Position numbers and translations under genes: made by a program
Assembly: GCA_963522845.1 (NCBI GenBank)
Contig: CAUQYZ010000003.1
Coordinates: 5,914 to 69,913 of the forward strand
Source of the DNA: an uncultured Candidatus Saccharibacteria bacterium
Lineage (GTDB): Bacteria > Patescibacteriota > Saccharimonadia > Saccharimonadales > Saccharimonadaceae
DNA: 64,000 nucleotides
Reading direction: 5' to 3'
Notes under the pieces: generated by a model
Databases searched by the model: none
Seen by the model: only the letters and a program-made list of their open reading frames with translations
Told to the model about the DNA's origin: nothing
Part shown: positions 25,624-39,978 of the stretch, piece after piece
Layout: every line of letters begins with the position of its first letter
How positions within the stretch are numbered: position 1 is the stretch's first letter

Positions 25624-25960
25624 GGGGTCTCAATTCGGTTTATCGAGACTCCATAGAGAATACCAGAGAGTGCGAAAAGCGTGCTGAAGTTTGTTTGAGA
25701 GGCACATGCAAGTAGCACATCGGGATGCGATCTACTGCTGTCGGAGAAAATTATTAGCTGTCCGGCGGAGCTAAGAAACTTAACAATTCGGTAATATCAA
25801 CTAACTACGCTTGGATTGGCTCGACGAGCTAATCAAGCTAAACAACTCTCGCCTTTAGGCTGAGGTGGTGAAGCCGTTGTAGCCCATGCCTTTCTTTCGC
25901 AGCTTCATTAATCTTGGCTTGACCATCTCTACCTAGAGACGAGACTTACCCGGAAAGGAG
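25624..25960 (+). promoter_or_regulatory. Structured early-operon leader with two sRNA target sites and a boxA-like element
   Basis: Serial hairpins; 22-mer 25626-25647 complementary to 52000-52021; CAATTCGGT repeated at 25784-25792; ACTTAACAA at 25778-25786. Confidence 0.6.
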
Positions 25961-25968
25961 AAAATAGT

Positions 25969-26112
25969 ATGTGGTTAGAAGTACTGTCGACTTTAGTTGG
26001 CATTAGCCCCCTGTTCATCGCTTGGGCGCTAGCAGTTTGGCTAATCAATCAGTTTAAGTACGACGAGAACGGTTACGAGATAGAACGCTGGTGGAGGCAG
26101 ATCCGTTTCTAG
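25969..26112 (+). CDS. 47-aa single-TM peptide, first early gene (below ORF-track cutoff)
   Basis: MWLEVLSTLVGISPLFIAWALAVWLINQFKYDENGYEIERWWRQIRF; SD AAGGAG. Confidence 0.7.
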   Translation: MWLEVLSTLVGISPLFIAWALAVWLINQFKYDENGYEIERWWRQIRF

Positions 26113-26114
26113 TT

Positions 26115-26465
26115 ATGGCAATGAGTATGAAGGATTGGGATAAGGCAATTCCTAATGAGCTTGCTGCTTTACTAAGGGAGCGCCGTGATAATATCACCGA
26201 AAACATCGACTTCGGAATAGTGAGAATGAATGATGACGGTGAGATATCCAACTGGCACAGTGTTCTGATCAACGCTGTAATGATGAGCGATGCCGTCGAT
26301 GATTACATCAGGGATTATCGCAACGATCGATGCAGCCGTGATGAATATGGCTGGCTGATGGATAAAGCGGCTGATTACGTCGACGAAGAGAACATTGTCG
26401 ATTACAACTCGGCTGTAGATGAATACCTCAAGCTGGCACAAAGAAAGGAGTACGAATATGAGTAA
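26115..26465 (+). CDS. Acidic phage hypothetical protein
   Basis: ORF tightly packed between the peptide gene and recT; start uncertain. Confidence 0.7.
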   Translation: MAMSMKDWDKAIPNELAALLRERRDNITENIDFGIVRMNDDGEISNWHSVLINAVMMSDAVDDYIRDYRNDRCSRDEYGWLMDKAADYVDEENIVDYNSAVDEYLKLAQRKEYEYE

Positions 26466-27318
26466 CACTTCGGGTGGCAAGTCGATGACTCTCGCCCGAT
26501 ACATCCACGACGATAACGTTAAGGCGAGGATTAACCAGCTACTGGCGGAACGAACTCCCCAGTTCGTCACCAGCCTGATTTCAGCGGTCAACGCCAGTAG
26601 CAGTCTGGCGAAATGTGAGCCTCGGTCAGTCCTCACCGCTGCTCTGACAGCAGCTTCGATGAAGCTTGAGATTAACCCTAATCTTGGATTTGCCTATCTA
26701 ATACCCTACGACACCAAAAATGGTAGCTTATGTCAGTTTCAAATGGGCTACAAAGGGTTTATCCAGTTAGCTCAGCGGTCGGGGTTGTACAAGACTATCA
26801 ACGCCGAAGATGTGCGAGAGGGCGAGATTATCTCTCGTGATCGATTGTCCGGTGACATCAAGTTCAATTGGGCTGACGACAAGACCAGACAGAAGCTCAA
26901 GGTAGTTGGCTACGTCGCCTATTTTGAGCTACTTAACGGCTTTAGCAAGATGCTCTACATGACAACTGACGAGCTTCTGGTTCACGCTAAGAAGTACAGC
27001 AAGGCGTTTGCTAAGACCGGCGCCGGTGTCTGGGTCGATGAGTTTGACGGCATGGCGAAGAAGACTGTTCTAAAGCTCCTGATTAGCAAGTACGGAGCGC
27101 TTGACACCGAGCTTCAAAAAGCCGTCGTCAGTGACCAGGTGGTTGACGGAGCCTACGTGGACAATCCCAACTCGCCGGAGGCAAAGGCTGAGGACGCAGA
27201 AGAAATGAAAGCGATGGTGCGCAAGAAGCTGGGCATCGAGCCGGGTAACGGTGGCGAGACTGTTGACCCGCTAGCACCCATAACCATGGAGGATTTTGAT
27301 AAGCATGAAAATAGTTAA
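26458..27318 (+). CDS. recT: RecT-family single-strand annealing protein
   Basis: LEINPNLGFAYLIPY, QFQMGYKGFIQLAQRSG, MAKKTVLK; SD AAGGAG. Confidence 0.93.
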   Translation: MSNTSGGKSMTLARYIHDDNVKARINQLLAERTPQFVTSLISAVNASSSLAKCEPRSVLTAALTAASMKLEINPNLGFAYLIPYDTKNGSLCQFQMGYKGFIQLAQRSGLYKTINAEDVREGEIISRDRLSGDIKFNWADDKTRQKLKVVGYVAYFELLNGFSKMLYMTTDELLVHAKKYSKAFAKTGAGVWVDEFDGMAKKTVLKLLISKYGALDTELQKAVVSDQVVDGAYVDNPNSPEAKAEDAEEMKAMVRKKLGIEPGNGGETVDPLAPITMEDFDKHENS

Positions 27319-28048
27319 GATATCGCAGAGCAACGAGCGAGCGAAGTGGAAAGACTTTCGGCGAGGAAAGATCACCGGCACTTCGATCGGTAGCTTATAT
27401 GCGAAAAGCCGGAGTAAAGACGGTGGATTTACTGACAAACCTCTAGATACTCTTTGGGCTAAAGTCGGCGAGAGATTAAGTATTGCCGGCGAAGACGAAG
27501 CCCCTATCGTGCGCGGTATTAGACTGGAGGATACGGCTGTCGAGAAAGCCTGCGAGATGCTTGGACTCGACAACTACGTTAGTGACGCCCTTACATGGCA
27601 AAGTGATGAAAATGAGAACTGGCTATGTTCTCCCGACGCCTACGAGGACGTTGCTGAGCCGACCTGGGCGATGGAGGTTAAGTGCCTCGACACTAAGAAT
27701 CACCTACGGATGATATTCAACGGCTGTGTTGATGAAGCGTATCAATACCAAGTGGCCAACTACTTCTTGGTTAACGAGAAGCTTGATCGGCTATACTTCG
27801 TCCTCTACGACGATCGCCTGGCTATCCCGGGGCTAGTTATGAAGGTGTTCGTTGTCACCAGGGATGACGTCATAGATACAATCGAGCTGCTGCGTCGGAC
27901 CCGAGATAAGGCGGAGATACAGATCGACAACATCGTTAAGCAACTACTCGATATGGCTAAAGAGATGAAGGTTGTTAAAGAGGCTGAGATTGTATCCCCT
28001 CCTGCCGAGGTCAAGACTAAAACCTTAAAGGCAGCTAACGCCAACTGA
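27305..28048 (+). CDS. YqaJ/lambda-exonuclease family protein
   Basis: W...RRGKITGT, RGIRLE, CSPDA, MEVKC, YQYQ; adjacent to recT. Confidence 0.88.
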   Translation: MKIVKISQSNERAKWKDFRRGKITGTSIGSLYAKSRSKDGGFTDKPLDTLWAKVGERLSIAGEDEAPIVRGIRLEDTAVEKACEMLGLDNYVSDALTWQSDENENWLCSPDAYEDVAEPTWAMEVKCLDTKNHLRMIFNGCVDEAYQYQVANYFLVNEKLDRLYFVLYDDRLAIPGLVMKVFVVTRDDVIDTIELLRRTRDKAEIQIDNIVKQLLDMAKEMKVVKEAEIVSPPAEVKTKTLKAANAN

Positions 28049-28069
28049 GGCACTGGAGGAATATGAGCG

Positions 28070-28327
28070 ATGATGTTCATAAGGCGGGCGATCTTAGGAG
28101 TAAAAAGACTAAGACTCCTGGAGCGTCGCCCAAAGCTAAAGCTGAAGGGCAAAGTCGATTGGCCAGGTTCAAGATTTACTTCGAGGGAATCTAGGCAAGA
28201 GACGAAAAAAGAGATCGCTAGGCGTCGTGAGGTCTTTAATCAGACAAGACCTCACGATGATATAGATGATCTGATAGAAGCACTGGAGTTTGAAAACTTT
28301 ATGAGGGATAAATATGACCATAGATAG
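28070..28327 (+). CDS. Phage hypothetical protein
   Basis: ORF in packed early operon; SD GGAGG. Confidence 0.55.
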   Translation: MMFIRRAILGVKRLRLLERRPKLKLKGKVDWPGSRFTSRESRQETKKEIARRREVFNQTRPHDDIDDLIEALEFENFMRDKYDHR

Positions 28328-28598
28328 ACTAACGATACACGAAATGAAGATTAGGCGTATCACCATCGTAAGTGGATACGCCTCCATCGATAAGAGGCAA
28401 AAAGATGCCATCAATGCTTCTGCCTCTGCCGCCGCTAGCTCCGGCAGGCTTGGCTCCGACAAGGTGTTTTATAACTTAGGACGAGCCGATGGATTTAGGC
28501 AGGACTTGGGTGCTTATTTTGACGATATGACTTGTTTAGTAGATAGGCTCTTGCGACTGCTCGACAACGAACTAGCATCAACTAAGCAGGAGAAATAA
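28314..28598 (+). CDS. Phage hypothetical protein
   Basis: Overlapping ORF in early operon. Confidence 0.65.
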   Translation: MTIDRLTIHEMKIRRITIVSGYASIDKRQKDAINASASAAASSGRLGSDKVFYNLGRADGFRQDLGAYFDDMTCLVDRLLRLLDNELASTKQEK

Positions 28599-28602
28599 GC
28601 GA

Positions 28603-29103
28603 TTGAGCGAAGACGCTAGAAAGACAGTCCTAGACCCATGTTGCGGTGGCAGAATGTTTTATTTCTATAAGCACCACCCGCTGGTCATGCATGGCGATAT
28701 CCGTTCAGAGCGGGTCTCCATGTCTGATCGTGGCAAGCTCAGGACATTGGACATTAACCCGGATATGCTACTCGACTTTACCGATATGGACTTTGGGGAT
28801 GACAGCTTTAAGTTTGTGGTTTTCGACCCGCCCCATCTCATAAATTGTGGGGAGAATAGCTGGCTGGCGAAGAAGTATGGCAAGCTCGATAAAAGCAGTT
28901 GGAAGGAGGTCTTGAGTAAGGGGTTGAGCGAATGCATACGTGTTGTCGAGCCTGGTTGTGTTGTAGCCATGAAGTGGAGCGAGGGCGACGTATCGACGGC
29001 TAAACTTCTAAAGGCGTTGCCCTATCAGCCTGTTTTCGGCGATAAACAAGGCAAGAAGCGATGGTTATTTTTTATTAAAGAACTGAAGGGAGAAAATAAA
29101 TGA
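28603..29103 (+). CDS. Phage SAM-dependent methyltransferase (amino-MTase-like)
   Basis: VLDPCCGGRMF (motif I-like), VVFDPPHL (motif IV-like), KYG.L. Confidence 0.85.
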   Translation: MSEDARKTVLDPCCGGRMFYFYKHHPLVMHGDIRSERVSMSDRGKLRTLDINPDMLLDFTDMDFGDDSFKFVVFDPPHLINCGENSWLAKKYGKLDKSSWKEVLSKGLSECIRVVEPGCVVAMKWSEGDVSTAKLLKALPYQPVFGDKQGKKRWLFFIKELKGENK

Positions 29104-29693
29104 AACGCTACAGATTAAATAAGGATTGGTTGCCGTTTGCTAAGGGAACTAAGTTCCTTAAGACCGAGGACAGTGGCAACATGTATACTCTGGAAGACAA
29201 CACAGGCGTGCTGGCTAAAATACCGACAGACCTATTAGACGAGATTATCGACAGCGACCACTGGAAGCCAATGAATGGCGAGAAGTTTTACTACATAGAC
29301 GAGGATGGTGATGTTTTTGATAGCGTATTTGGTCCCGGCGAAAGCCCACTTGACATGGATGTGTACTTACTCGGTAATTGCTTTAGAACCAGAGAAGACG
29401 CTCAAGCTATGGTTGACTGGCTCAGGGCTCGACAAAGACTGATTGAAAGTGGAGCGAGGTTTATCAATTCACGAGACGTTGGCGCCGACAGGAAGCACTT
29501 TATTGTCTACTTTGACGTGAGTGGAGAAAAATTGACGATCGAGGATATTCTTCTTAACGAACACTCTGTATATCAGAAGAGACTATATTTTGACAATGAG
29601 CGATTAGCTCGGAAGAGTGTCAAGGAGTACAAAGACGATTGGCTAACGTATCTTGGCGTGAAGGAGAAGAATGATGAGCGAACTGACGCATAA
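29100..29693 (+). CDS. Phage hypothetical protein
   Basis: WKP..GEKFYYI and GNCFRTREDA motifs of a type seen in phage early proteins. Confidence 0.75.
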   Translation: MKRYRLNKDWLPFAKGTKFLKTEDSGNMYTLEDNTGVLAKIPTDLLDEIIDSDHWKPMNGEKFYYIDEDGDVFDSVFGPGESPLDMDVYLLGNCFRTREDAQAMVDWLRARQRLIESGARFINSRDVGADRKHFIVYFDVSGEKLTIEDILLNEHSVYQKRLYFDNERLARKSVKEYKDDWLTYLGVKEKNDERTDA

Positions 29694-29910
29694 AGAGCTT
29701 TTGGAGTCAAAGCGGATCTTCGACTTAAACATGGTGGGCATTTTCGCACTTATTAAGGTGCTAGGCAACGGTGGTCTGAGTGAAGATGCCGTCACTGATA
29801 TCGCCGATGAACTCGAAGATTACATGATTAGTGTTGAAAGGGCATATGAAAAGATATGGCAATATCTCGATGAGACTGCGCCGAATGAGAAGGAGAAAGA
29901 CAATGAGTGA
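29671..29910 (+). CDS. Phage hypothetical protein
   Basis: SD AAGGAG; overlaps neighbours. Confidence 0.65.
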   Translation: MMSELTHKELLESKRIFDLNMVGIFALIKVLGNGGLSEDAVTDIADELEDYMISVERAYEKIWQYLDETAPNEKEKDNE

Positions 29911-30241
29911 AGAAATTAATAAAACCATGACGGTATGCGTAAGTCTAAAACAATTTGCCAAAGCGACCATGGCTGTATACGCAATGATTGAGGCGGCTAT
30001 TGAGCAATATGACGATACGGCAACGAGTTTTAACGAAGGGTTGTTGGCATTGGGCAACGAGATGAAAACTCATGTCGACTATATCTACACCGTAGCAATC
30101 GAGTCCAGTAAGACCGTTTTACTTACGACTAAGATTCGCATCAAGTCTGAGATTGATAAGTTGGACAGGCTTATAGATGCGTATGAGCAGGTTCAGAAAA
30201 AGCAGTCCAGCAAGAAGAAAGAAGCAGATAATGAAAAGTAA
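29903..30241 (+). CDS. Phage hypothetical protein
   Basis: Start MSEEINK after SD AAGGAG. Confidence 0.65.
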   Translation: MSEEINKTMTVCVSLKQFAKATMAVYAMIEAAIEQYDDTATSFNEGLLALGNEMKTHVDYIYTVAIESSKTVLLTTKIRIKSEIDKLDRLIDAYEQVQKKQSSKKKEADNEK

Positions 30242-30491
30242 TAGGCGTGCATCTGAAGCTTTGATAAACATAGCTTCTGCGATAATCTTATTACCTTTAG
30301 CGGTAGCGATAATTGCCTTCTCGACAGTCTTTACCCGTAACGTCATTCATAGTGCTACCCTGCCTGATGAAAAGCAGGCTCAATGTGAGAGCCTCGGTGG
30401 CAAGTGGTCGGTCAATCATCAATGCTATAACGCAGGCGAGCCAACGACCATTAAGAAGCTCAAGGACAGCTTGAAGGGGGTTGCGAGATGA
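30231..30491 (+). CDS. Phage membrane protein with CESLGGKW...C motif
   Basis: One TM followed by a small Cys domain. Confidence 0.65.
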   Translation: MKSNRRASEALINIASAIILLPLAVAIIAFSTVFTRNVIHSATLPDEKQAQCESLGGKWSVNHQCYNAGEPTTIKKLKDSLKGVAR

Positions 30492-31255
30492 CGGAATACT
30501 CAGAGCTGCGCATAGCTGCAGAGCGGCTCGTAATCTTGGACGAGATAAAGAGTTGTCTCAAGAAATCAGGCGCCAACCTCACCGAACATGACCTTTGCAC
30601 AGTAGAGAGATATCTGCATCATGCAGTCGCCATCGAGCTCACCTTTGCCGATCGAGTCGCAAAGAGGATAGTCGACGAGAGAATTGTATTGCCCGCCAGT
30701 AAACGTCCTCCCCTGTGCGGTTATATAGCGAGAGAAGTAAGCAAGTCTGATTGGTATTCAGAGCTGTTGCGCTTGGCTAGAGGTGATCAGATGTTGAATT
30801 TTGTCAACGCTGAGCTGAGCAGTGCGTCTATCGTCGCCTCCGTCAGGTGGAAGCCCCATATTTTTTCGAAGGTAACATCTTTGATATCCAAAGAACACGG
30901 ATATTCGTCTATAAATATGTTTAATATCGAGGAAGTGCTGAAGCTTGCATTCGACTATGAGAGTAGTATGGTGCATGACCGTATCGTGGAATCGGTAAAC
31001 AGTGCCGTTGTCGAAGCCTGGTCTCGTTATGGATGGCTAAAAAGACAGAGTACTATAGTTGATAACATCCGTATGGTCTTGAACTGCAAGGAGAAAAAGA
31101 TCACAGGAGCTCTGCGCCGTTTTACGGAGCTAATGGGACTGGGATATATATTCAAGCTCGATGATGAACTCACTAGGGAGTTCTTGGTCGAAGCCATCAC
31201 GGAGGGTGTCTGGAAAAGAGTTAAAAATAGTTCGGAGGATAACGATGGCAATTAG
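30488..31255 (+). CDS. Phage hypothetical protein
   Basis: 255-aa ORF with ATGA overlap. Confidence 0.7.
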   Translation: MTEYSELRIAAERLVILDEIKSCLKKSGANLTEHDLCTVERYLHHAVAIELTFADRVAKRIVDERIVLPASKRPPLCGYIAREVSKSDWYSELLRLARGDQMLNFVNAELSSASIVASVRWKPHIFSKVTSLISKEHGYSSINMFNIEEVLKLAFDYESSMVHDRIVESVNSAVVEAWSRYGWLKRQSTIVDNIRMVLNCKEKKITGALRRFTELMGLGYIFKLDDELTREFLVEAITEGVWKRVKNSSEDNDGN

Positions 31256-31571
31256 TCTAGGTTATTACACACTAACTATCGACGAGCTGGAATCGCTGAA
31301 GTCCAACAGCTTACATGACCTAAATATAGAGACGTTAATTTACTCTATAGGCGACGTTAGTTATGTTAAGCAGGGCAGGTTTGTTTGTCGTGACGACACC
31401 GGCAATTGGTACTCCGGTATGCTCTCGTGGAGCGGAAACTCTGAGAAGACTGCCTTTGATAGTGAGTTATTCCCTAAGCCTCACCCGCTTTATGAGCTTA
31501 TGAACATATTGAGAGTAAGTTCTAAAAATACGAACTGTCTAATGCTTTGGCGTTACCTAGACAAAAAATAA
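31245..31571 (+). CDS. Phage hypothetical protein
   Basis: Start MAISLG after SD GGAGG. Confidence 0.6.
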   Translation: MAISLGYYTLTIDELESLKSNSLHDLNIETLIYSIGDVSYVKQGRFVCRDDTGNWYSGMLSWSGNSEKTAFDSELFPKPHPLYELMNILRVSSKNTNCLMLWRYLDKK

Positions 31572-31573
31572 GG

Positions 31574-32032
31574 ATGTGCTTGATGGCGACAGGTAGTGAT
31601 CTCGACGGGTCTATTAGGGATATCAATGGCGATATTGCAATTTGGCTTAATGACGATGGAGTCCTCAAGTCGATATACGGCAAGATGGCCGATGCTATTG
31701 CGAGCGAGGGTCTAAGCCCGTTAGACCTAAGTAATGCCATCAACGCATTATATATGATCCAAGACAGTATCAGAATTAGGTTCTTGTTTTCCGCCAAGAA
31801 GGTTGGCGTGATGACTAATAAAACCATGATCACAATCATGCTGCGCTGCTCTATCTACGAGAAGATATTGAGAAACGTCGGGGCATATCTGCGAGTTGTG
31901 TCGACCAAGAGACCGTATCCCACGCCGAAGTCTATGTATATAGACTCAATGGCAATGGTCGCCATGTACGGTCGCCCCGAAGCACATTCTCGCCGAGCAT
32001 CAAAAGCGATACAGCTGAAGCTTGACCAATAA
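31574..32032 (+). CDS. Phage hypothetical protein
   Basis: ORF continuing the early operon; start uncertain. Confidence 0.6.
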   Translation: MCLMATGSDLDGSIRDINGDIAIWLNDDGVLKSIYGKMADAIASEGLSPLDLSNAINALYMIQDSIRIRFLFSAKKVGVMTNKTMITIMLRCSIYEKILRNVGAYLRVVSTKRPYPTPKSMYIDSMAMVAMYGRPEAHSRRASKAIQLKLDQ

Positions 32033-32054
32033 ATAATTAAAGAGAGGAGTAATT

Positions 32055-32186
32055 ATGCAGAGTGTATGGAACGTAGTATCGACGATGTCAGGCATCGCCC
32101 TTATAGCGGGGCTGGCCTTGGTTATCCTGGTGATAGTAGTCCTAATCGCAGCTACCATTATCAGCGTCACGGAGCTTAAAAAGTAG
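32055..32186 (+). CDS. 43-aa hydrophobic peptide, last early gene
   Basis: MQSVWNVVSTMSGIALIAGLALVILVIVVLIAATIISVTELKK; SD AGAGGAG. Confidence 0.65.
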   Translation: MQSVWNVVSTMSGIALIAGLALVILVIVVLIAATIISVTELKK

Positions 32187-32405
32187 ATTGCTTGGCGGTA
32201 CTAGTAGGTGGTGTGTGTATTTAACTATTTTCTCCACATACTGCTGATAGCCAATAGTAACAACAAATTCGCCTCGACCCACCTGAGACGGCCGCCAAGG
32301 GGGTGCCTCCCATTACCTCACATAAAGCTAGTAAACGGAACAAGGTGAAGTACAAGAAAGAAACTCGCAAGCGGATACCCTCCGCAAGAAGAAAATAGCT
32401 AGCAC

Positions 32406-32433
32406 AGCCCCACTCTTGGGGCTTTTTAGTTTT
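32406..32433 (+). terminator. Terminator ending early transcription just before the invertible segment
   Basis: AGCCCCA-ctct-TGGGGCT plus T-rich tail. Confidence 0.8.
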
Positions 32434-32440
32434 CACTGCC

Positions 32441-32502
32441 ATTACCGACGCTAACATCAACGATATCCGACAACGGTCGTATCTGACCAGGGAGCTGATA
32501 AG
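32441..32502 (+). repeat. 62-bp inverted repeat, left (IR-L)
   Basis: Exact reverse complement of 33302-33363; encodes ITDANINDIRQRSYLTRELI. Confidence 0.97.
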
Positions 32503-32947
32503 CTACACTATGCCGTCCGTCTCCAGTAGACAGAAGTCACCTCAGACATTCGAGGCAAACGGAGTACAGACTAGAGTGCGAGGGTTTACTGATGCTTATC
32601 GAAGTACAACTGACTATGGTGGATACTTTGTGTTAAACGGCGACCATGTAAAAATTATCAGACCTGGTATATACCTAGCTCGTTGGCAAGTCTTGACCAT
32701 AGAAGCTAATAACATCTTCGGTCTAATCTGCGTCGGTACAGGCAATGGAACCGGTGCTTATGAGATATACCACGGGCTTTTCAAGGCAGCCTCCCCGACC
32801 GGTTATCAGAGCATTGGCGGAACTAACATCCTCATCGTTGATACACCAAGCTCGTGCGTGTGGGTAAACATAGAAAATAGAGCACTAAGGACAGCAACCC
32901 TAGCGGACCAGACGTATATTCAGCTAGCGAAGTTGGGCGACTTATAG
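32501..32947 (+). CDS. Silent alternative C-terminal cassette of the tail fibre (beta-rich)
   Basis: In frame with IR-L (…LTRELI-SYT-MPSVSS…); no RBS of its own seen; convergent with the expressed cassette. Confidence 0.85.
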   Translation, partial: SYTMPSVSSRQKSPQTFEANGVQTRVRGFTDAYRSTTDYGGYFVLNGDHVKIIRPGIYLARWQVLTIEANNIFGLICVGTGNGTGAYEIYHGLFKAASPTGYQSIGGTNILIVDTPSSCVWVNIENRALRTATLADQTYIQLAKLGDL

Positions 32948-32955
32948 ATGAAGAG

Positions 32956-33891
32956 CTAATTGCTCGGTTCAGGGTCGTCCGTGAAGTAGACAACGAAGAC
33001 CGTCACCGGCCAACCGGCGTGTGAAGGATGCTCCGTGTTCCACGACATGAGCCCGTCTGGGCGCATCAAAAACGCCCCCGTGTTCAATTGTCCGGTATCG
33101 GCTGTGTAAATGCCCATAGCACCTCGTGTCGGTATTGTCGGTCGATAGCCGACCGGTATCCTTTCATTGCTGGTTCCCGAGACAGGCATTGAGGATGTCG
33201 TACTGAATGCCATGGCGACGCACATACTGCCTCTGCGTTGAATATTAAGCTTTAGCCCGAAAGGACCGGCGATATTGGTCTTTTCATATATCTTGTCCTG
33301 TCTTATCAGCTCCCTGGTCAGATACGACCGTTGTCGGATATCGTTGATGTTAGCGTCGGTAATTAAGCTGGCGCCGCTCGTTACCTGTACGCTTGCTATT
33401 ACCTGGTACAGTGTGGTCGTACCGTTCGGCAGTGCACTGCGGATCTTCGCTGCATTCGGTAGTTGTGGCGTCGCAGCTACGTCACCACCGACCACTACAA
33501 TTCCAACCGAGCCGGGATTGTCGGTCGTGTCGCTATCCCCTTCGACAGTCATGTCTTTGTATAGCACGATAGCATCAAGACGTGAATTAGCTGTCGGTGC
33601 CGGCGGAATTGTCAGCCTAATCGGAGTGTTATTGCGATTAAAAACCACATGTCTATCCCCTATGCCGTCATCCGTCAGCAGGGCGACGTCCTTGATAGCC
33701 TCGCTGCCGGCCGTCTCCCCGCCTACTCGTACGGACATGCCGAGCGGGTTATCTGCACACACCCTAAAGCCGGATACTATCCCGGCTGAGAAAGCGTTAG
33801 CAGCTCCGGCTGAATAGCCTTCGACTGAGGTCATGCCGCCATATTTGTTCGGTGTCCCCAGGGGGTCTCCCGGGTTGTTTTGATTAGCCAT
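32956..33891 (-). CDS. Tail fibre / receptor-binding protein (196-aa constant part plus variable C-terminus)
   Basis: N-terminal GMSVRVG...PAPTANSRLDAIV...IASVQVTSGASLITDANIND; C-terminal RRGS...RIPVGYRP, typical of tail-fibre domains; SD AGGAG. Confidence 0.8.
   Translation of the reverse strand: MANQNNPGDPLGTPNKYGGMTSVEGYSAGAANAFSAGIVSGFRVCADNPLGMSVRVGGETAGSEAIKDVALLTDDGIGDRHVVFNRNNTPIRLTIPPAPTANSRLDAIVLYKDMTVEGDSDTTDNPGSVGIVVVGGDVAATPQLPNAAKIRSALPNGTTTLYQVIASVQVTSGASLITDANINDIRQRSYLTRELIRQDKIYEKTNIAGPFGLKLNIQRRGSMCVAMAFSTTSSMPVSGTSNERIPVGYRPTIPTRGAMGIYTADTGQLNTGAFLMRPDGLMSWNTEHPSHAGWPVTVFVVYFTDDPEPSN
33302..33363 (-). repeat. 62-bp inverted repeat, right (IR-R), inside the tail-fibre gene
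   Basis: Exact reverse complement of 32441-32502. Confidence 0.97.
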
Positions 33892-33915
33892 GAATGATTT
33901 CTCCTATGTTAGTTA

Positions 33916-34560
33916 TCAGTAGCAGAGCCCGTAGACGCTGCCGGTGCCGAAATTACGCCTGGCGATGTAATTACGATTGCCGGAGTAGCCAACGTAGCTG
34001 ATCCAGCGATAGCCGTTTGCATCGATATAGCTGTCGTATTGCACTGTTTGTCCGATACCCAGAGTGCCCACGGTTTGACCGTTTAGACTCGGTTGCCGGC
34101 GAATGTTCATTCTATCGGTTGCTCGGTACGTGCCGTGCTGCTCGATGCGCTGACCGTTGGTTCTCGCCACTATCGGGCGTAGCCGGCAAAGAGCATCCGG
34201 TCGGAATATCGCTTGGTATCCCCGGAAAGGACTATGCCTGAGTGCCACCCTGAGCGCTATGGTGCCGTTTTGGTCGAGAAAGAGCCCGTCGGTGTTTATC
34301 ATCCCGATATGCCCGAAACCTCCACCATAATTAGCTCCATAGCGGATAATATCGCCCGGTCGAGGTGCATCCCCGACTCGGTGAAACCTGGGTGGTATGA
34401 AGTCCTTAGCATTACCCCTAGGAGCATAAGGGATATCGTAGCACCGGTAGAGGTACTGCTGAATCAAGCTAACGCATTGCCCCGGATAGCTACCGTTCGG
34501 ATTAGATACCTGTCCGGTACCGATAGCCCACTCACAAAACTCGTCTAGACTAATTGTCAT
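33916..34560 (-). CDS. Endolysin: CHAP amidase plus SH3b (SH3_5) cell-wall binding domain
   Basis: GQCVSL...GNAKD...FGHIG; MNIRRQPSL...YDSYIDANGYRWISY; ATG 34560 after SD GAGGAGG. Confidence 0.88.
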   Translation of the reverse strand: MTISLDEFCEWAIGTGQVSNPNGSYPGQCVSLIQQYLYRCYDIPYAPRGNAKDFIPPRFHRVGDAPRPGDIIRYGANYGGGFGHIGMINTDGLFLDQNGTIALRVALRHSPFRGYQAIFRPDALCRLRPIVARTNGQRIEQHGTYRATDRMNIRRQPSLNGQTVGTLGIGQTVQYDSYIDANGYRWISYVGYSGNRNYIARRNFGTGSVYGLCY

Positions 34561-34672
34561 CGTTATCCTCCTCTGTGTTCTTGTTGCCAAATGGGTTGCT
34601 AATACCGTAGACCTTACCCTTGAACTCAAAACCCGGCCTAACGTCGCCGCTATCCGTTGTGCCACTATCCAT
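34550..34672 (-). CDS. 40-aa acidic peptide between holin and lysin
   Basis: MDSGTTDSGDVRPGFEFKGKVYGISNPFGNKNTEEDNDDN; SD AGGAGG; overlaps both neighbours. Confidence 0.5.
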   Translation of the reverse strand: MDSGTTDSGDVRPGFEFKGKVYGISNPFGNKNTEEDNDDN

Positions 34673-34988
34673 TGTTGACCTCCTGTTCTACGTTGATCTT
34701 ATTTACCTTGTTTGCGCTAGTACCGGTAGCACTAGTCGAGCTGTTGCCAAAGCCCGCCTTGACAGTGGCGTTGACCCCCGACGCTACTAAACCGAGCACC
34801 ATGCCGTAATACAGGTCAAGTCCTCGACTTAGCCCAACCAGAGCCCCCGTTACCGCTGCTACCACTATGACCAGCGCCTTCTGGTAGTCTTTCTTGATGA
34901 GCAGCTTGGCTAGCTCTGTAGCCCCGGTAATGGCCATCACTAAGATGGTCAGGTCGATTGGATTAATTTTACTTATTAGATCTTGCAT
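34665..34988 (-). CDS. Putative holin
   Basis: Small multi-TM protein with GMVLGLVASG directly upstream of the lysin. Confidence 0.75.
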   Translation of the reverse strand: MQDLISKINPIDLTILVMAITGATELAKLLIKKDYQKALVIVVAAVTGALVGLSRGLDLYYGMVLGLVASGVNATVKAGFGNSSTSATGTSANKVNKINVEQEVNNG

Positions 34989-35011
34989 TTCTCTCTCCTT
35001 TCATTAGATTA

Positions 35012-35296
35012 TTAGTGCAAGCTGTTTAGAAAATGCATCAGTAAGAAGGTTACGATAGCGGTGATGATCGATGATATCAGCGCCGTTCCGACTAGCGGTC
35101 GATTAGCCTTAAACTCCAGATAGCTGAGACGACTCTCATGCTTATCCAGGGCGTTGTTGCGATCTTTCACTGCCAGCTCTAACGCTGATTTACTGGCCAG
35201 GGTGTCCAGCTTCTCGTTGATTGACTTGAAACCGCTCTCAATCTCCTGCTGTATCAATGCGATTTGGGCTTCTGAGCTGAGATTTTGATTACTCAT
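35012..35296 (-). CDS. Coiled-coil protein with C-terminal TM (lysis-module associated)
   Basis: …INEKLD…HESRLSYLE followed by a TM. Confidence 0.65.
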   Translation of the reverse strand: MSNQNLSSEAQIALIQQEIESGFKSINEKLDTLASKSALELAVKDRNNALDKHESRLSYLEFKANRPLVGTALISSIITAIVTFLLMHFLNSLH

Positions 35297-37517
35297 AGCT
35301 AACCTCTATCTCGCCAACAGTGATCATGAACACCGTCTGACACTCGCAATATGGGTGGATGTGAGCACCTTCGATGTTCTCGTAGTTGTTAGTCCAGTGT
35401 CCGCCCAGCGTGCCGTCGATTGTCTCACCGACGCCGACTATCGGGTTGTCAAGCTCGAACCATTGCCCGGCGAGTGACTGACAATACTCACACGGGTGAG
35501 CTCCGTCGTTCCGAACGCTCTTGAACGCTCGAGCACCGGTCTGCTTAGCCCAGTACCTCACCTGGTCGACTTTCTGTAGTTCGTCGGCTCGATGTGTCTC
35601 TGATACTGCCAGCCGCTCAGCGTCCTTTCCGTCGATGAGTGCTCCTAGACGGTCGGCAAGCCCGTCTGCGTCCAGCCCTTCCGCTCGAGCTTTACTGATG
35701 GTCGTTACTATTCGTTGCCTGATGTATTCGCTGTGATTGCGAGCTACTGTGCGTAAATGGTCTCTTAGGTCACGAACGACAGGTGAGCTGGTCGATTGAA
35801 TATTACTTATTAGCTTGCGCATATTCTCGGGTGTTTTGTTTTTGCGGTAGTTATTGATGCTTCTTGACAGCCTCTGATCACCGCCGGTGTAGGTGGTTGC
35901 TAAGTTATCCGTCGGGATGTTAATCGACCGCAAGAACGCCAGCCCGGGACCAACTCTTTTATTGCCCAGCTCGAAGACCGTCATGGTGATTATGGCGGTG
36001 AGCATGACGGCCAGCTCCTCTTCATCTCGCAGTCTCTTCTGTCTCTCTTCGTCACTCTCGTCGTCGGCTGCCTTGATGAGCAGGTCGTTCTTTGCGACTT
36101 GTTCACTCAGCTCGAGTTCATATGCAGTGACTATGTGCTTAAGTTGCTCGCTGTATTTCTTTAGGTCAATCTTTAACGGGCAATACACCGGTTGAGATTG
36201 AGCAACTTTTTTATGCATTACCGCCCTTGGCTTTCTTGAGGCGGTACTGTCGGGCGTGTCATCGCCATCCTGAACATTAAAGTTATCCAGACGGTACTTC
36301 TTGTTGGCCATAGCCAGGTATCGAGCCGGCAAACCGAGAATTTCAATAGCACCCTCAGTTGTGTATCCCTGGTCGGTTAACGCCTTGATGTTGCCGATAT
36401 TGACCGTATCCGTCTGAGCCTTCTTGTAGTCTTCGTCGGCAAAAGCCGGGCGAGCCGACTCGTAGGTGAACGATCCACCGATATCACCGAAGATGTTAGA
36501 TGCTTCAGCCGTGAGCTTATCGTAGAGTGCTTTAGCGATTGGGTCGACCACGCTGTCGTAGAAGATCCACTCCGCCATTATCACGGAGGCGTAATTTGAG
36601 TTGGATAAGAACCCTTTAATCTCATTCGGTACTCCGATGGGACTACTGAGTCGCCTCTCGGTAAAGTCGATGATGTCCGACGTAGTCATATCCCTGGCGT
36701 TGCTTTGGATTTGCTGCCAAGTAACCATCGGTACGCCGGGTTTGCCGTTGACGAGCGGAGTATGGCTGAATATCGGCTCGTTATTACCTCCACCGTTTGC
36801 CATCGATTCGATGATACTGTTCTTGACCGTCTGATACTTGTCGTTGGTGTCGGCGATGATATTGAATTGCCCATTGGGAGTTCCACCTCGAGCATAGTAC
36901 TTTTCCTGCATCTGTCGGTTCAGATCATCCAGCTTTGCCCAGGGCATCATCGCTCGATAGGCGGCATAGCCTCGACTGAGGTCACGGGGGTCAAGCACGT
37001 CAGATATCTCCAGCACCCGATTTGGATTGACGCTAACGTTCTGCTTCTTCAGTATGGTCGATATCACTCTGCCTTCGTCATCCAGTGAGACGTTAGTCGG
37101 CAAGAGAATGTCATAGCCGGTTACCTGCGAGATAGATCTGACCGGTTCATCATATGCCGACTTGTTGTCCAGGAGGAGCAGGTAGAACTTATCATGCACC
37201 AGCAGATTGATGGCGAGGTTCTTGCGGAACTGACTGGCTGACATCTTGTTGTTTGGTCGGTATAGCGCATTGAGGAGTGGAGAGTCTGTCGGCTTATTCT
37301 TGCGGTCGACGAAGAACGGCTCGATCTTAGCGAAGCCGTTAGCTGCCTTGACTATGTCGGCGTAGGCGTTGTCCAGATAATCTCCGTCGCCCGATAAACG
37401 AAAGCTTGACCCTAGGCTGCGTCCTAGATTGCTGGCTATTCCGGTGGGGTCTCTAAAGGCGGTGATGGCTGATTGTATTCGCCTAAAGACGCTGGTAGAT
37501 TTCTTACTCATCTTCAT
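35289..37517 (-). CDS. Portal protein fused to a MuF/SPP1-gp7-like minor head domain
   Basis: Portal-like LLNALYRPNNKMSASQF, GGTPNG, IGVPNEIKG..SNYAS; C-terminal AERLAVSETHRA, CEYC..LAGQ, HIHPYCEC. Confidence 0.85.
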   Translation of the reverse strand: MKMSKKSTSVFRRIQSAITAFRDPTGIASNLGRSLGSSFRLSGDGDYLDNAYADIVKAANGFAKIEPFFVDRKNKPTDSPLLNALYRPNNKMSASQFRKNLAINLLVHDKFYLLLLDNKSAYDEPVRSISQVTGYDILLPTNVSLDDEGRVISTILKKQNVSVNPNRVLEISDVLDPRDLSRGYAAYRAMMPWAKLDDLNRQMQEKYYARGGTPNGQFNIIADTNDKYQTVKNSIIESMANGGGNNEPIFSHTPLVNGKPGVPMVTWQQIQSNARDMTTSDIIDFTERRLSSPIGVPNEIKGFLSNSNYASVIMAEWIFYDSVVDPIAKALYDKLTAEASNIFGDIGGSFTYESARPAFADEDYKKAQTDTVNIGNIKALTDQGYTTEGAIEILGLPARYLAMANKKYRLDNFNVQDGDDTPDSTASRKPRAVMHKKVAQSQPVYCPLKIDLKKYSEQLKHIVTAYELELSEQVAKNDLLIKAADDESDEERQKRLRDEEELAVMLTAIITMTVFELGNKRVGPGLAFLRSINIPTDNLATTYTGGDQRLSRSINNYRKNKTPENMRKLISNIQSTSSPVVRDLRDHLRTVARNHSEYIRQRIVTTISKARAEGLDADGLADRLGALIDGKDAERLAVSETHRADELQKVDQVRYWAKQTGARAFKSVRNDGAHPCEYCQSLAGQWFELDNPIVGVGETIDGTLGGHWTNNYENIEGAHIHPYCECQTVFMITVGEIEVSYE

Positions 37518-37522
37518 ACTCC

Positions 37523-37544
37523 TCACTATATAGAAACCTCGAAA
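37523..37544 (-). promoter_or_regulatory. Late-promoter-like motif, copy 1 (TTTCGAGGTTTCTATATAGTGA)
   Basis: Identical to 49674-49695; directly upstream of the portal gene. Confidence 0.7.
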
Positions 37545-37546
37545 AA

Positions 37547-37966
37547 CTACTGTGTCTTCACTTGTTCTATGGTGAACTTCCCCGTCTTATTTCCGTTCGC
37601 CACCACTCGCACGATGTATGTGCCGTTACCATAAGCCGGCATGTAATAGGCGTAGGTTATCACCTGTCCATCCCCGGCTTGAGTACTATCTATCTGAGTA
37701 AAATACTCGGAAAACCCGTTGATAGAGTTGTCATACCGAATCTCACTGATTGATATCTCGCCGATAAAATATCCTTTATCGCCAAAGTTGAAGGTCACCT
37801 TGAGCCACACACCGATGGCGTTGCCCGAGTCCAGTCTGAGGCTGGCGGATGTTAGCTTGGTGATTAAAGCGTAACCGGGCATTGGTTGTCGAGCTTTTAG
37901 GGCGAGTACCTGTTTGCGCTGCTGATTGACGATATCCACCAGGCTGCTTTCTCTTGGCGTAATCAT
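37547..37966 (-). CDS. Minor tail/baseplate protein (paralog 3)
   Basis: N-terminal LALKARQ motif; beta-rich. Confidence 0.65.
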   Translation of the reverse strand: MITPRESSLVDIVNQQRKQVLALKARQPMPGYALITKLTSASLRLDSGNAIGVWLKVTFNFGDKGYFIGEISISEIRYDNSINGFSEYFTQIDSTQAGDGQVITYAYYMPAYGNGTYIVRVVANGNKTGKFTIEQVKTQ

Positions 37967-38391
37967 GAGTGTTGCACGACCTCCACGGCAATACTGCCCG
38001 GCTCGGCAGACAGAACTTGTACCTTGACCCGAGCACCGGCACTGGCGAGGTTTGCGCCACTAATAAATCTCACGAGCCCCGACTGCGAGCTGGGTTCTCT
38101 TCTCATCACCGGACCGTTGTTGCGTCCGCCGATACCGTAGTATTCCAACCCTAGCGGATCTACCTCCGGCTCCAGGGTGGCACTGACGTTTAGACAACTT
38201 GAATTAGAGTTATCCGCCTTGAAGGTGACTACGGCGGAGCACACTTGACCGGCGTTATTTATGCTGGGTAGGTAGACAACGTTGTTATAGACATACGCTC
38301 CGAACGAGTCAAGCGAAGTGCGCTGACCGGCTTTCAGCGCTTCCAGCATCGTCCGGTTGTCGTTAACTTGAGTAATTATGTCGTCATTCAT
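37963..38391 (-). CDS. Minor tail/baseplate protein (paralog 2)
   Basis: LEALKAGQ motif. Confidence 0.65.
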   Translation of the reverse strand: MNDDIITQVNDNRTMLEALKAGQRTSLDSFGAYVYNNVVYLPSINNAGQVCSAVVTFKADNSNSSCLNVSATLEPEVDPLGLEYYGIGGRNNGPVMRREPSSQSGLVRFISGANLASAGARVKVQVLSAEPGSIAVEVVQHS

Positions 38392-38401
38392 TCGACTTGA
38401 C

Positions 38402-38845
38402 CTATCCTATCTTCTCTATCACCAGTCTGCCGGTGACGTTGGATGACACCTGGACGTCGATGCGCAGGTTGCTGTATATGGTTGGTCCGGAGGGACGTAT
38501 ACTAAGCAACCACACGACCTTTTCCGGCGCCAGCTCGGACATAAACGCCGACAGGAACTCTTCCCTGACTTGAGGCTCGAGCATCCCTGCGGCCAGATTG
38601 TTCATCCCATAGCGCAGATTAGCGGCATAGGTCTCTGTCGATTGCTCGAGCAAAAAGGAGACTTGCCACCGCCCGAAGGTCTGACGCAAGTCGGCCACTC
38701 CCTGCCAGATACCATTGATGAGCTTAGTGTCGGTCAGGGTCTGATTATCCCTGAATTGTGCTGCCTTGAGGGCTAGTAGTTCGTCTCTAACCTGCTTTGC
38801 CTTGCCGACGATGCCCGCAGAATCCTGTTCAGCGAGATTGATCAT
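38402..38845 (-). CDS. Minor tail/baseplate protein (paralog 1)
   Basis: LLALKAAQ motif. Confidence 0.65.
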   Translation of the reverse strand: MINLAEQDSAGIVGKAKQVRDELLALKAAQFRDNQTLTDTKLINGIWQGVADLRQTFGRWQVSFLLEQSTETYAANLRYGMNNLAAGMLEPQVREEFLSAFMSELAPEKVVWLLSIRPSGPTIYSNLRIDVQVSSNVTGRLVIEKIG

Positions 38846-39978
38846 TGCTTTACCCCCAGGCTACTTAGCGTCAAGTCGACCTCCTCGCCACCTTCCGAGT
38901 TTACCGAGACGACCATCTCCTCGATACGATACAGCCCGTCCACCTTAAACCAGGGTGACTTGTTGTTGATCACTCGGATGACTTCGCCGGCATGGATTGA
39001 GCCAACGTCAAACTCAGCTCCGTTGACTTTCGGTTGAGGTAGAAATATCGGCAGCTTCTTGACGGCAAGCTCAGCCTCGGCGTGCTGCAATAGCGTCTCT
39101 TTGACGGAGATGTCGGAATAATCAAGCACGGACTCATGAACGCCATACTGGGCGATTGACTCGGCGTCGGCAGCGGTGACGACCAAGGTAGTGTCTCCCT
39201 GCCCCGACCCTCGAGCGATGATGTAGTTTGCCATCGAGGAGACCAGCTTCATGCTCATCGATGTAGCACCGGCCTGCCTGTTGCTGGCTTTAGCCGGCGC
39301 CGGGTAGATGACTGTCATATCGTGAACGATTGGGTTATTGATATCGTAGCTCTCCCACTCTCTAAACGGCGTAAACCTAAAGTCGAAGTCGTTTGAGCCG
39401 TCACCCAGGCTGGTCAAGTTGACTACCGCATCCTTGATATTCTGCTTATTGTCGTAAGTTCGGTCTCGTCTGACTTTGGTGGCATAGTAGTTGGCGTTAG
39501 AGATTGTGATATCCAGTGTCGAGCCCGATTTAGCGCAGGCGTATCTTATTAGGTCACTGGCGATATCTGCCGTGTACTGCTGCGTGTACCGTCTAGTGTC
39601 GGTAATCATCTGATCGGCCAGTAGGTTGAGATATCCATCGCAAGACACCGATACGGTCGTGTTGCTTTGGTTGAAGTTGATATCGGGAAAGTCGTTAACG
39701 AAGCCCCCGATGCGATACTTGCCGTAACGTTTTAGCTTGATATCCGTGTTCTTGAGTTGCAGCAAGACGGCGGGGTCCTCTCCGATCTTTCGGCAGTAGT
39801 CACTGAGTACGCCTTGGTCTATGTTGAAGTCGATCGAGCCGACGCCATTGCGAGACTCCGTCCATTTGAACGAGTTGAGCAGACGTCCGATTTCGCCGAC
39901 CTTAGTTCGATTGCGCCACCAGACTTCCACCTCGTACTTGCGCATTGGCTTTGAGCCGCCACTTTCCATGTCTACCAC
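38842..39978 (-). CDS. Siphovirus minor tail / hub protein (Tal- or Gp37-like)
   Basis: Position after Dit; ANYIIARGSGQG, SIAQYG.HE, GEVIRV motifs. Confidence 0.75.
   Translation of the reverse strand: MVDMESGGSKPMRKYEVEVWWRNRTKVGEIGRLLNSFKWTESRNGVGSIDFNIDQGVLSDYCRKIGEDPAVLLQLKNTDIKLKRYGKYRIGGFVNDFPDINFNQSNTTVSVSCDGYLNLLADQMITDTRRYTQQYTADIASDLIRYACAKSGSTLDITISNANYYATKVRRDRTYDNKQNIKDAVVNLTSLGDGSNDFDFRFTPFREWESYDINNPIVHDMTVIYPAPAKASNRQAGATSMSMKLVSSMANYIIARGSGQGDTTLVVTAADAESIAQYGVHESVLDYSDISVKETLLQHAEAELAVKKLPIFLPQPKVNGAEFDVGSIHAGEVIRVINNKSPWFKVDGLYRIEEMVVSVNSEGGEEVDLTLSSLGVKQ

Follow-up and report, generated by a model that had tools for sequence, protein, structure and literature searches.

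A two-state receptor-binding head in a Saccharibacteria prophage, probably switched by DNA inversion between long inverted repeats with no adjacent invertase

Phage Mu (G segment, Gin), phage P1 (C segment, Cin), p15B (Min), and e14 (Pin) have tail-fibre inversion systems that target myovirus long-fibre genes by means of an adjacent serine invertase and short crossover sites, which have a 2-bp core and work with an enhancer. The alternative C-terminal parts, two or more, face each other inside the invertible segment, the constant N-terminal part stays outside it, and their exchange gives rise to host-range variation. All four are named as tail-fibre inversion systems in two papers (PMC6109161, PMC9881135). 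Mavrich et al. (2018; PMC6109161) describe the Rin shufflon of Bifidobacterium prophages as a set of several cassettes, with a tyrosine invertase next to them and an asymmetric 11-bp rix site ahead of each. The same text likens the constant N-terminus of the receptor-binding proteins (RBPs) involved to the RBP of phage 1358, and their variable C-termini to the TP901-1 head. It also presents a second inverted locus, in bifidophages integrated at tRNA-Met, with an 8-bp site and no flanking recombinase, for which an invertase acting in trans is proposed (PMC6109161). In the pneumococcal hsdS genes, the dedicated tyrosine recombinase PsrA explains only one of three inversions, and deleting 13 other recombinase genes one at a time, recA and xerS among them, produced no detectable effect (Li et al., 2016; PMC4948785).

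The locus described here belongs to a prophage of an uncultured Candidatus Saccharibacteria bacterium and lies within the window, the whole 64-kb stretch of DNA that was analysed. Its parts, together with the candidate recombination genes of the phage, are the following:

25439..53845, no strand: prophage of ~28.4 kb between the two copies of a 103-nt direct repeat, in which a complete tRNA-Gln(ttg) is embedded
26419-27318, plus strand: phage RecT-family annealing protein (Pfam RecT, E 1.1e-42)
27296-28048, plus strand: YqaJ-type exonuclease (Pfam YqaJ, E 3.9e-7)
32406..32433, plus strand: terminator-like hairpin and T tract ending the plus-strand early genes, directly upstream of the distal arm
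32441..32502, plus strand: distal (silent) repeat arm, which co-varies with the proximal arm across phages
32503..32947, plus strand: head cassette B, silent at present; 148 codons and a stop, continuing the frame of the distal arm
32948..32955, no strand: 8-nt spacer between the convergent stop codons, seen in the sequence
32956..33301, minus strand: head cassette A, expressed at present; aa 197-311 and a stop (ORF, fold match, dN/dS)
33302..33363, minus strand: proximal (expressed) repeat arm at the shoulder/head junction, from the repeat alignment
33304..33891, minus strand: constant N-terminal 'shoulder' module of the RBP, aa 1-196 (ORF; its last 20 codons lie in the proximal arm)
52669..53604, plus strand: Xer-like tyrosine integrase Int, the sole intact site-specific recombinase in the phage (Pfam Phage_integrase, E 7e-27)

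This arrangement shares the architecture of the Gin, Cin, Min, and Pin systems, but the phage has no Resolvase-family gene, the repeat is 62 nt long, and the target is the head of a siphophage RBP. With Rin it has in common a 1358-like shoulder, a TP901-1-like head, and apparent DNA inversion at their junction, whereas it has no adjacent recombinase, its arms are perfect over 62-67 nt, and there are only two cassettes. The second bifidophage locus is similar in that an inversion of roughly 500 bp exchanges a structural gene's 3' end with a small gene facing it and has no recombinase alongside; it differs in its 8-bp site, where the 62-nt arms of the window phage are homogenised along their whole length, pointing to homology. 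The hsdS genes also undergo coding-sequence inversions at inverted repeats, but they are bacterial restriction-specificity genes with a dedicated recombinase at the locus, and the window holds a phage RBP gene without one.

The anatomy of the segment is as the earlier note had read it. The two arms are exact inverted copies, 100% complementary over 62 nt, and enclose 799 nt. Within the 311-aa ORF (32956-33891, minus strand) the right arm encodes residues 177-196 (ITDANINDIRQRSYLTRELI), and the left arm reads in frame on the plus strand into a second cassette (SYT-MPSVSS...) ending at 32947. The two cassettes therefore stand tail to tail, with stop codons 8 nt apart. No other inverted repeat of at least 26 nt in the 64-kb window exceeds 96% identity, and the 850-kb genome has this sequence twice and no more. 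With about 2e9 position pairs, each with a probability of 4^-62, the odds that it arose by chance are negligible. The terminator claimed upstream of the silent cassette is present as a terminator-like hairpin with a T tract at 32406-32423 plus tail, comprising a 7-pair stem with 5 GC pairs and the tail TTTTAGTTTT, and it is kept in the related loci L009, L010, and L011. A second, 27-nt inverted repeat (31234-31260 / 34545-34571) was considered as the border of a larger invertible unit and set aside, its early-strand copy being missing from all five related loci.

The gene had been taken for a tail-fibre gene; the fold matches identify a siphophage baseplate-type RBP and not a long tail fibre. 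An AlphaFold model of the 311-aa protein has a mean pLDDT of 87, with the shoulder (aa 1-196) above 85 and a drop below 50 at residues 197-201, immediately past the repeat arm. In VIA-align comparisons, residues 20-193 match the shoulder of the phage 1358 RBP (Z 9.9; PDB 4l92), residues 196-305 match the TP901-1 RBP head (Z 13.4, rmsd 2.3, 103 aligned residues; PDB 2f0c), and the p2 RBP is matched over its full length (Z 12.6; PDB 1zru), the latter also by Foldseek (E 2.8e-7). Sequence identity to the three RBPs is only 7-13%. Judged by its predicted shoulder-plus-head fold, the gene product is a lactococcal-phage-type RBP. RBPs of the p2/TP901-1 type are homotrimers on the baseplate, encoded beyond Dit/Tal. 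The window gene differs from those of p2, TP901-1, and 1358 in position: a Dit gene (39972-40886) and a Tal-like gene are present in the prophage, but the RBP gene follows the lysis genes instead, coming after the portal, holin, and endolysin genes. In two relatives (G350 and G209) the RBP homologue precedes the lysin.

Structure prediction of both tips, as proposed in the earlier note, resolved one of them: head A is modelled as TP901-1-like, while head B has a pLDDT of 30-40 and no resolved fold. Head B has no match in Pfam, PHROG, or NCBIfam, and sequence searches return near-identical relatives only. A language-model comparison gives a lead, and a lead only, to BclA_C/C1q-like heads. The silent tip of the same-genus relative G132 matches Pfam Gp10_C (E 1.6e-24). 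The shoulder is found in 631 representative homologues, most of which match residues ~5-180 only and carry different C-termini; a search of isolated-phage proteins gave one weak partial match.

Inversion of the segment was predicted to yield a 344-aa protein with the same 196-aa N-terminus, and this protein exists as a natural ORF (5001-6035) in the viral contig L011. There, the inverted repeat, head B, the spacer, and the last 187 nt of head A match the window in reverse orientation, at 89.9% across 702 nt, while the flanks align forward, and it is exactly at the repeat that the two alignments overlap. Head A keeps its last 61 codons in frame, tail to tail with the 344-aa ORF across a 7-nt join. 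L011 is locked in the B orientation by a deletion that took its silent repeat arm. L015 is locked in the opposite orientation, A, having lost the distal arm by deletion, and the fusion ORF P0182 represents a further locked deletion variant. Searches with the N-terminus returned a 52-member cluster with a 311-aa representative and a 37-member cluster with a 344-aa representative; five distinct 344-aa sequences occur among the 15 members listed for the latter. Related phages are thus found in both orientations, and the single fixed orientation that the earlier note had held up as evidence against a switch is not what they display.

L011 is the only readable contig in the B orientation, and since it is a deletion derivative, a B-state locus with both arms was not among the contigs read. 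Such an intact locus is hinted at by ORFs consisting of head A only (89 and 116 aa, on 4 and 3 contigs, respectively). A metagenome scan with the N-terminal alignment gave at least one locus (L015), and a scan of genome contigs gave one (L008), whose contig ends inside head A. Among 82 same-genus genomes there was one further high-identity match, at a contig end, and a viral-contig scan with the repeat core recovered the same three contigs and none new.

The silent cassette is maintained. In the window, L009, and L010, in all of which head B is silent, its dN/dS is 0.16, 0.16, and 0.19 at dS 0.16-0.36; in the same comparison head A gives 0.11-0.16 and the shoulder 0.08-0.18. None of the three lineages has a stop codon or an indel in head B. 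These ratios indicate that the silent head is under purifying selection, as are the expressed parts. The inverted L011, the oppositely locked L015, selection on the silent head, and the identity of the arms within phages together indicate, from comparison of sequences, that inversion is real on an evolutionary scale.

The earlier note's observation that an invertase is missing holds up for this phage and its host genome: none of the 37 prophage ORFs matches Resolvase (PF00239), and the window contains no serine invertase. When the search was extended to the rest of the genome, the only Resolvase match was a large serine recombinase broken into at least three ORFs on contig C2. The recombinases of phage and host genome are confined to this broken gene, one Xer-like gene, and Int, the one ORF of 37 that matches Phage_integrase (PF00589), about 19 kb from the proximal arm. 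By tblastn, no remnant of a switch-adjacent recombinase of the G132 type is found in the window other than Int itself, and NCBIfam models detect no hidden recombinase among the 18 unnamed early ORFs of the window apart from Int. A search for the rix motif stays at chance level (1 match with 1 mismatch versus 0.76 expected). RecT and YqaJ, assigned to PHROGs 148 and 149, are candidate drivers of a homology-based inversion, a role they would share with RecA, which is encoded in the host genome. A diversity-generating retroelement, which would combine a reverse transcriptase with template and variable direct repeats, was also considered and rejected: the 37 ORFs include no reverse-transcriptase family, and the repeat is inverted and perfect.

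The wider family provides a contrast. The facing-cassette layout is found in five of the eight distant homologues examined. In G132, the order of constant part, variable cassettes, and adjacent Xer-like tyrosine recombinase follows that of Rin; the recombinase lies 86 nt from the distal arm, and the repeat is only 22 nt long. G072 has a perfect 25-nt repeat, and four further relatives carry a tyrosine recombinase 0.65-4.2 kb beyond the silent cassette. Since G132 has a recombinase beside its switch, the missing invertase appears to be a trait of the window phage's lineage and not of the whole family. The short repeats of G132 and G072 point to site-specific recombination as the ancestral mechanism.

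The arms themselves carry a different signature. They are 100% identical within each of the window, L009, and L010, yet these three lineages differ from one another at 4-5 repeat sites. The differences fall at synonymous positions (3, 15, 24, 48, and 51) spread along the whole repeat, and the outer repeat boundary varies (62 versus 67 nt). Because one crossover at a fixed site cannot homogenise both its sides, this concerted evolution argues for homology-driven exchange. The reading we favour, with a probability of roughly 55%, is a two-state RBP head switch driven mainly by homology, through RecT/YqaJ or RecA. The shoulder ends in the 62-nt sequence that is repeated in inverted orientation 799 nt downstream, with the 115-aa, TP901-1-like head A and the 148-aa head B standing tail to tail between the arms. 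Recombination of arm with arm would flip the segment, so that the late operon would produce either a 311-aa or a 344-aa protein, the unused head being left promoterless behind the terminator. The flip would most likely occur by homologous recombination between the arms, given the lack of a dedicated invertase in the phage and the homogenisation of the arms from end to end; probable agents are the phage RecT/YqaJ during replication or the host RecA in the lysogen. Adsorption specificity would then change slowly, as a form of bet-hedging. Direct support exists for the anatomy, the RBP fold, the natural inverted derivative, selection on the silent head, and the concerted evolution of the arms. 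On the other side stand the short repeats of G132 and G072, the deletion that locks L011, and the low-confidence model of head B. The arms could also be kept alike by gene conversion while inversion goes mainly by another route, and 62 nt is close to the minimum length at which RecA-dependent recombination is efficient.

Gene conversion also has a part in the next explanation, which is unlikely but the strongest competitor: the switch is real, and a tyrosine recombinase, either Int or the host Xer-like protein, inverts the segment in trans at a core within the arms, which gene conversion merely keeps identical. Cre, Flp, and Xer-type enzymes can invert DNA between inverted sites, and Int is a simple enzyme of the Xer type, aligning end to end with the XerA and XerC models (with scores under their cut-offs) and so having no extra N-terminal domain. 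The recombinase next to the 22-nt repeat of G132 and those near the silent cassettes of the four further relatives fit such a mechanism. So does the account of the bifidophages, where Rin acts on RBPs of the same type and a trans-acting invertase is proposed for the second locus (PMC6109161). The repeat, however, is unlike the 103-nt att repeat, with which it shares no 8-mer and no 11-of-14 match, and its internal palindromes are weak (the best has 6 of 7 pairs with a 4-nt spacer). Int is 62% identical to a second recombinase of G132 and 33% to the switch-adjacent one; it is thus orthologous to an enzyme that coexists there with a separate one at the switch. A fixed crossover would also leave the whole-length concerted evolution and the variable outer boundary unexplained.

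Less probable still is that the locus is a relic, an ancestral Rin-like switch that lost its invertase and no longer flips at a useful rate, its cassette and repeat being young or kept alike by occasional gene conversion. The lack of an invertase in the phage agrees with this, as do the locked deletion variants in both orientations (L011, L015, and P0182) and signs of decay among relatives: the switch-adjacent recombinase of G132 is split into two ORFs (134 + 157 aa), the G132 repeat has a mismatch, and the silent copy of G209 is frameshifted. Purifying selection on a head B that stays intact in three lineages at dS up to 0.36 would be unexpected if it were never expressed, and a relic also fits poorly with zero arm differences within lineages that have diverged from one another in the repeat.

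Finally, the alternative raised by the earlier note, that 32510-32947 is an independent gene, is very improbable, also when the repeat is taken as a by-product of partial duplication with no switching: the window does have an ATG in frame at 32510, preceded at 15 nt by GGGAG, and gene callers in other assemblies give ORFs of 123-176 aa for the cassette, but their starts vary (123, 127, 145, and 176 aa), the ATG is ATA in L009, L010, and L011 (L011 reads SYTIPF at the position of SYT-MPSVSS), its frame runs on from the repeat, the stretch directly upstream of head B shows a terminator-like hairpin and no promoter-like site, and in L011 head B is the true C-terminus of the 344-aa protein.

The favoured homology-driven switch can be carried one step further, tentatively and with less confidence than the switch itself. 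The lineage may have lost a Rin-like tyrosine invertase, of the kind that G132 retains beside its switch, and come to rely on homology-driven inversion as a programmed, recombinase-free switch. Gene conversion, with the expressed arm as donor, would have lengthened the repeat from ~22 to 62-67 nt, and RecT/YqaJ or RecA would now set the rate.

To our knowledge, the phages that infect Saccharibacteria and other CPR bacteria have hardly been studied, and which receptors they use is not known; a full-text literature search found no paper on RBP or tail-fibre inversion in Saccharibacteria prophages. The locus supplies two alternative receptor-binding heads that naturally share a single shoulder, and the natural locked A and B variants are ready reagents for asking what Saccharibacteria phages bind. 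That the silent cassette is under selection and the arms evolve in concert supports a coding-sequence inversion switch that has seemingly been kept working without an invertase of its own, a case that bears on how far phase variation can proceed by general recombination alone. Given the facing cassettes in most of the distant homologues examined and the widespread shoulder module, switching of this kind may be common in this group of phages. If the recombinase-free switch is true, it would provide host-range bet-hedging for the virus of an ultra-small epibiont.

The switch lies inside a ~28-kb prophage in a genome of 850,822 bases (24 contigs, 97.8% complete). The 103-nt direct repeat at the prophage ends, whose copies differ by one mismatch, encloses the entire tRNA-Gln(ttg) gene along with a promoter-like TGGTGTATAAT; the phage thus brings its own full copy of its integration-target tRNA gene. 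The gene for the receptor-binding protein (RBP) closes the late strand, after the endolysin:

25439-25541 and 53743-53845: 103-nt direct repeat (att) bounding the prophage
26419-27318, plus strand: RecT
27296-28048, plus strand: YqaJ-type exonuclease
Plus strand: DNA methyltransferase and several unnamed ORFs
32406-32423 plus tail: terminator-like hairpin with T tract, directly upstream of the left arm
32441-32502 and 33302-33363: inverted-repeat arms, 62 nt, perfect, 799 nt between them
32956-33891, minus strand: expressed RBP gene, 311 aa, containing the right arm as residues 177-196
Minus strand: late genes, namely terminase small and large subunits, protease-capsid fusion, head-tail connectors, tape measure, Dit, Tal-like protein, portal-like protein, two holin-like proteins, CHAP+SH3_5 endolysin and finally the 311-aa gene
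52669-53604, plus strand: Xer-like tyrosine integrase (Int), at the far end of the prophage

Among the late genes, the portal-like gene (745 aa, 35289-37526, minus strand) stands after the tail genes, just before the holins and away from the terminase, and its C-terminal third matches head-maturation-protease and minor-head PHROGs. The 610-aa ORF at 47681-49513 (minus strand) looks like a protease-capsid fusion, with weak prohead-protease matches (residues ~64-305) and a major capsid domain (329-563).

The 62-nt pair is the sole long near-perfect inverted repeat in a scan of the whole 64-kb window, and exactly two copies exist in the 850-kb genome. The left, distal arm reads in frame on the plus strand into a silent 148-codon cassette (head B) ending at 32947, its stop codon 8 nt from that of the facing cassette (head A). 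The arms, frames, stop spacing and terminator placed here by the earlier note were all borne out by a recheck of the window. A second inverted repeat (31234-31260 and 34545-34571; 27 nt, one mismatch) encloses 3.28 kb, within which lie both the RBP switch and the endolysin. Each copy comprises the ribosome-binding site and first five codons of a gene, namely the endolysin (MTISLD...) or an early-strand ORF that starts with an ATG at 31245 (MAISLG...). None of the five related loci examined (L008, L009, L010, L011 and L015) has the early-strand copy.

By its modelled structure, the 311-aa product is a siphophage receptor-binding protein. The AlphaFold model (mean pLDDT 87, alignment of 89 sequences) loses confidence at residues 197-201, precisely where the repeat-encoded stretch ends. 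Its top Foldseek matches are the RBP of lactococcal phage p2 (E 2.8e-7) and the TP901-1 RBP head, and VIA-align matches model residues 196-305 to the TP901-1 head (Z 13.4, rmsd 2.3, 103 residues), the model to full-length p2 RBP (Z 12.6), and residues 20-193 to the phage 1358 RBP shoulder (Z 9.9). These matches indicate that the switch would exchange the head domain at the linker between shoulder (residues 1-196) and head. An exhaustive profile-free search with the protein returns 631 representative homologues at E <= 1e-3; among the 150 matches listed, most are confined to residues ~5-180 in proteins of 89-546 aa, which indicates a conserved N-terminal module bearing many different C-termini. 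Head B is predicted at a pLDDT of 30-40 and has only near-identical sequence relatives; its resemblance to BclA-C/C1q-like trimeric heads is a lead from a language model only.

Inversion would join head B to the shoulder. The earlier note's statement that there is no invertase holds: none of the 37 prophage ORFs matches Resolvase, Phage_integrase is matched by Int only, and neither a small serine invertase nor a second tyrosine recombinase was found among them. NCBIfam gave no name to any unnamed early ORF scanned. A whole-genome search for invertases adds one Xer-like gene (C14) and one broken large serine recombinase (C2). The latter, the sole Resolvase-family sequence of the genome (C2:1342-2345), is split over no fewer than three ORFs, of 63, 81 and 108 aa.

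Close relatives of the phage comprise three IMG/VR contigs (L009, L010, L011), one metagenome contig (L015) and one MAG contig (L008), with 89.9-93.5% DNA identity over aligned stretches. L008 has a near-identical RBP gene, and L009 and L010 are arranged as in the window, their arms being perfect over 62 and 67 nt, respectively. Within the window, L009 and L010 the two arms are identical, the sites that vary from phage to phage are synonymous positions 3, 15, 24, 48 and 51 of 62, and in L010 arm identity reaches 5 nt further outward. A fixed-point conservative crossover could carry only an arm's inner portion from one position to the other and could not equalise both parts. From the whole-length homogenisation and the sliding outer boundary, a signature of homologous exchange, we infer such exchange between the arms. 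Homologous exchange between inverted repeats, when resolved as a crossover, produces inversion. A switch with homology-driven flipping is thus the best explanation, at a probability of roughly 0.55: the arms would recombine by homology, the segment between them would invert, and the other head would be joined to the shoulder. Candidate agents are the RecT/YqaJ pair of the phage and RecA of the host.

Flipping by a tyrosine recombinase acting in trans is unlikely, despite two parallels. In a relative of the same genus (G132) an Xer-like tyrosine recombinase adjoins a switch with a 22-nt repeat, and the paper on the bifidophage Rin shufflon proposes a trans-acting recombinase for a second locus without a flanking one (PMC6109161). 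Nothing ties Int to the window repeat, which shares no 8-mer and no 11-of-14 match with att and contains only weak palindromes.

Traces of inversion are found in the relatives. Compared with the window, L011 runs forward from the shoulder through the repeat end, then reversed for 702 nt, a stretch made up of the repeat, head B, the spacer and 187 nt from the end of head A, then forward again in the flank. The predicted 344-aa fusion of shoulder and head B exists there exactly as an ORF, and facing it tail to tail the final 61 codons of head A remain in an intact frame. Head A lacks its first 159 nt and the distal arm about 49 nt, with the deletion junction in a shared GTCGGT; L011 is therefore read as an inverted copy whose silent arm was deleted afterwards, which left the phage B-locked. 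Its mirror image is L015, an A-orientation contig in which a 364-nt deletion between two direct CTAACATC octamers (window counterparts 32451-32458 and 32823-32830) took the initial 320 nt of silent head B together with 44 nt from the distal arm. In P0182, a 191-aa protein from an ENA contig, the 3' half of head B is fused to an early gene homologous to that at 30488-31255. This implies that another phage variant underwent a third deletion, about 1.6 kb long, in which the distal arm, the terminator and several early genes were lost. One protein cluster, represented by a 311-aa sequence, counts 52 members; another, represented by a 344-aa sequence, counts 37. Among the 15 listed members of the latter are five distinct 344-aa proteins, each on 1-4 contigs; the other ten are ORFs of 123-176 aa that cover only the head B cassette and most likely represent its silent copy. 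ORFs of head A alone (89 aa, three sequences on four contigs; 116 aa, three contigs) would be the expected gene-caller output for a complete silent head A, and hint at intact B-state loci.

That the locus is a relic no longer flipping usefully is improbable. In a cassette that is never translated, dN/dS should drift towards 1. In pairwise Nei-Gojobori counts among the window, L009 and L010, in each of which head B is silent and free of stop codons and indels, head B has dN/dS of 0.16, 0.16 and 0.19 at dS 0.16-0.36, compared with 0.11-0.16 for expressed head A and 0.08-0.18 for the shoulder. The simplest reading of these counts is that inversion would express head B often enough to keep it under selection, and the switch is very probably real and maintained by selection. 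Separate expression of head B as an independent gene is highly improbable, as its ATG at 32510 is ATA in L009, L010 and L011, lone head B ORFs in other assemblies are called from four different starts, and the cassette lies behind the terminator-like hairpin, where no promoter-like site was found.

Among 400 other genomes of the family, eight have a shoulder homologue. Three have neither such a repeat nor a cassette, and five have an inverted repeat at the shoulder/head junction whose distal arm runs in frame (formerly so in G209) into a facing cassette of 123-132 aa:

G132: 22 nt, one mismatch
G072: 25 nt, perfect
G350: 32 nt, 81%
G227: 35 nt, 77%
G209: ~208 nt, 1-nt indels, silent copy frameshifted

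The near-perfect G209 repeat (contig G209:C1, L030 7379-8041, equal to L024 744-1406) has four 1-nt indels and 247 nt between arms, and duplicates most of the expressed head; the silent copy looks to be decaying or recently converted. In G132 (shoulder identity 50%) the silent cassette gives a match (E 1.6e-24) to the C-terminal domain of T4 Gp10, and the Xer-like recombinase begins 86 nt past the distal arm. Its gene (G132:C5, L026 8693-9563) consists of ORFs of 134 and 157 aa with an 8-nt overlap, a split that could be a frameshift, assembly error or pseudogene. A second G132 recombinase, beside a tRNA-Gln, is the orthologue of Int (62% identity; the switch-adjacent one 33%).

The window switch works like Mu G and bifidophage Rin, but lacks the adjacent invertase with short sites that defines those families. 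For inversions lacking an identified catalyst, pneumococcal hsdS loci offer a precedent: the dedicated recombinase explains just one of the three inversions there, and no effect could be detected when recA, xerS or any of 11 other recombinase genes was deleted singly (PMC4948785). Search listings of the literature returned no earlier switch of this kind in a Saccharibacteria phage. The window switch seems to operate with no dedicated recombinase. The Rin shufflon orders constant part, variable cassettes and tyrosine invertase as G132 does (PMC6109161), and site-specific inversion is therefore probably the ancestral mode in the family. The absence of an adjacent recombinase in the window's lineage, with repeats about three times as long as the 22-25 nt ones, fits a shift to homology-driven flipping, for which repeats of 22-25 nt are short.
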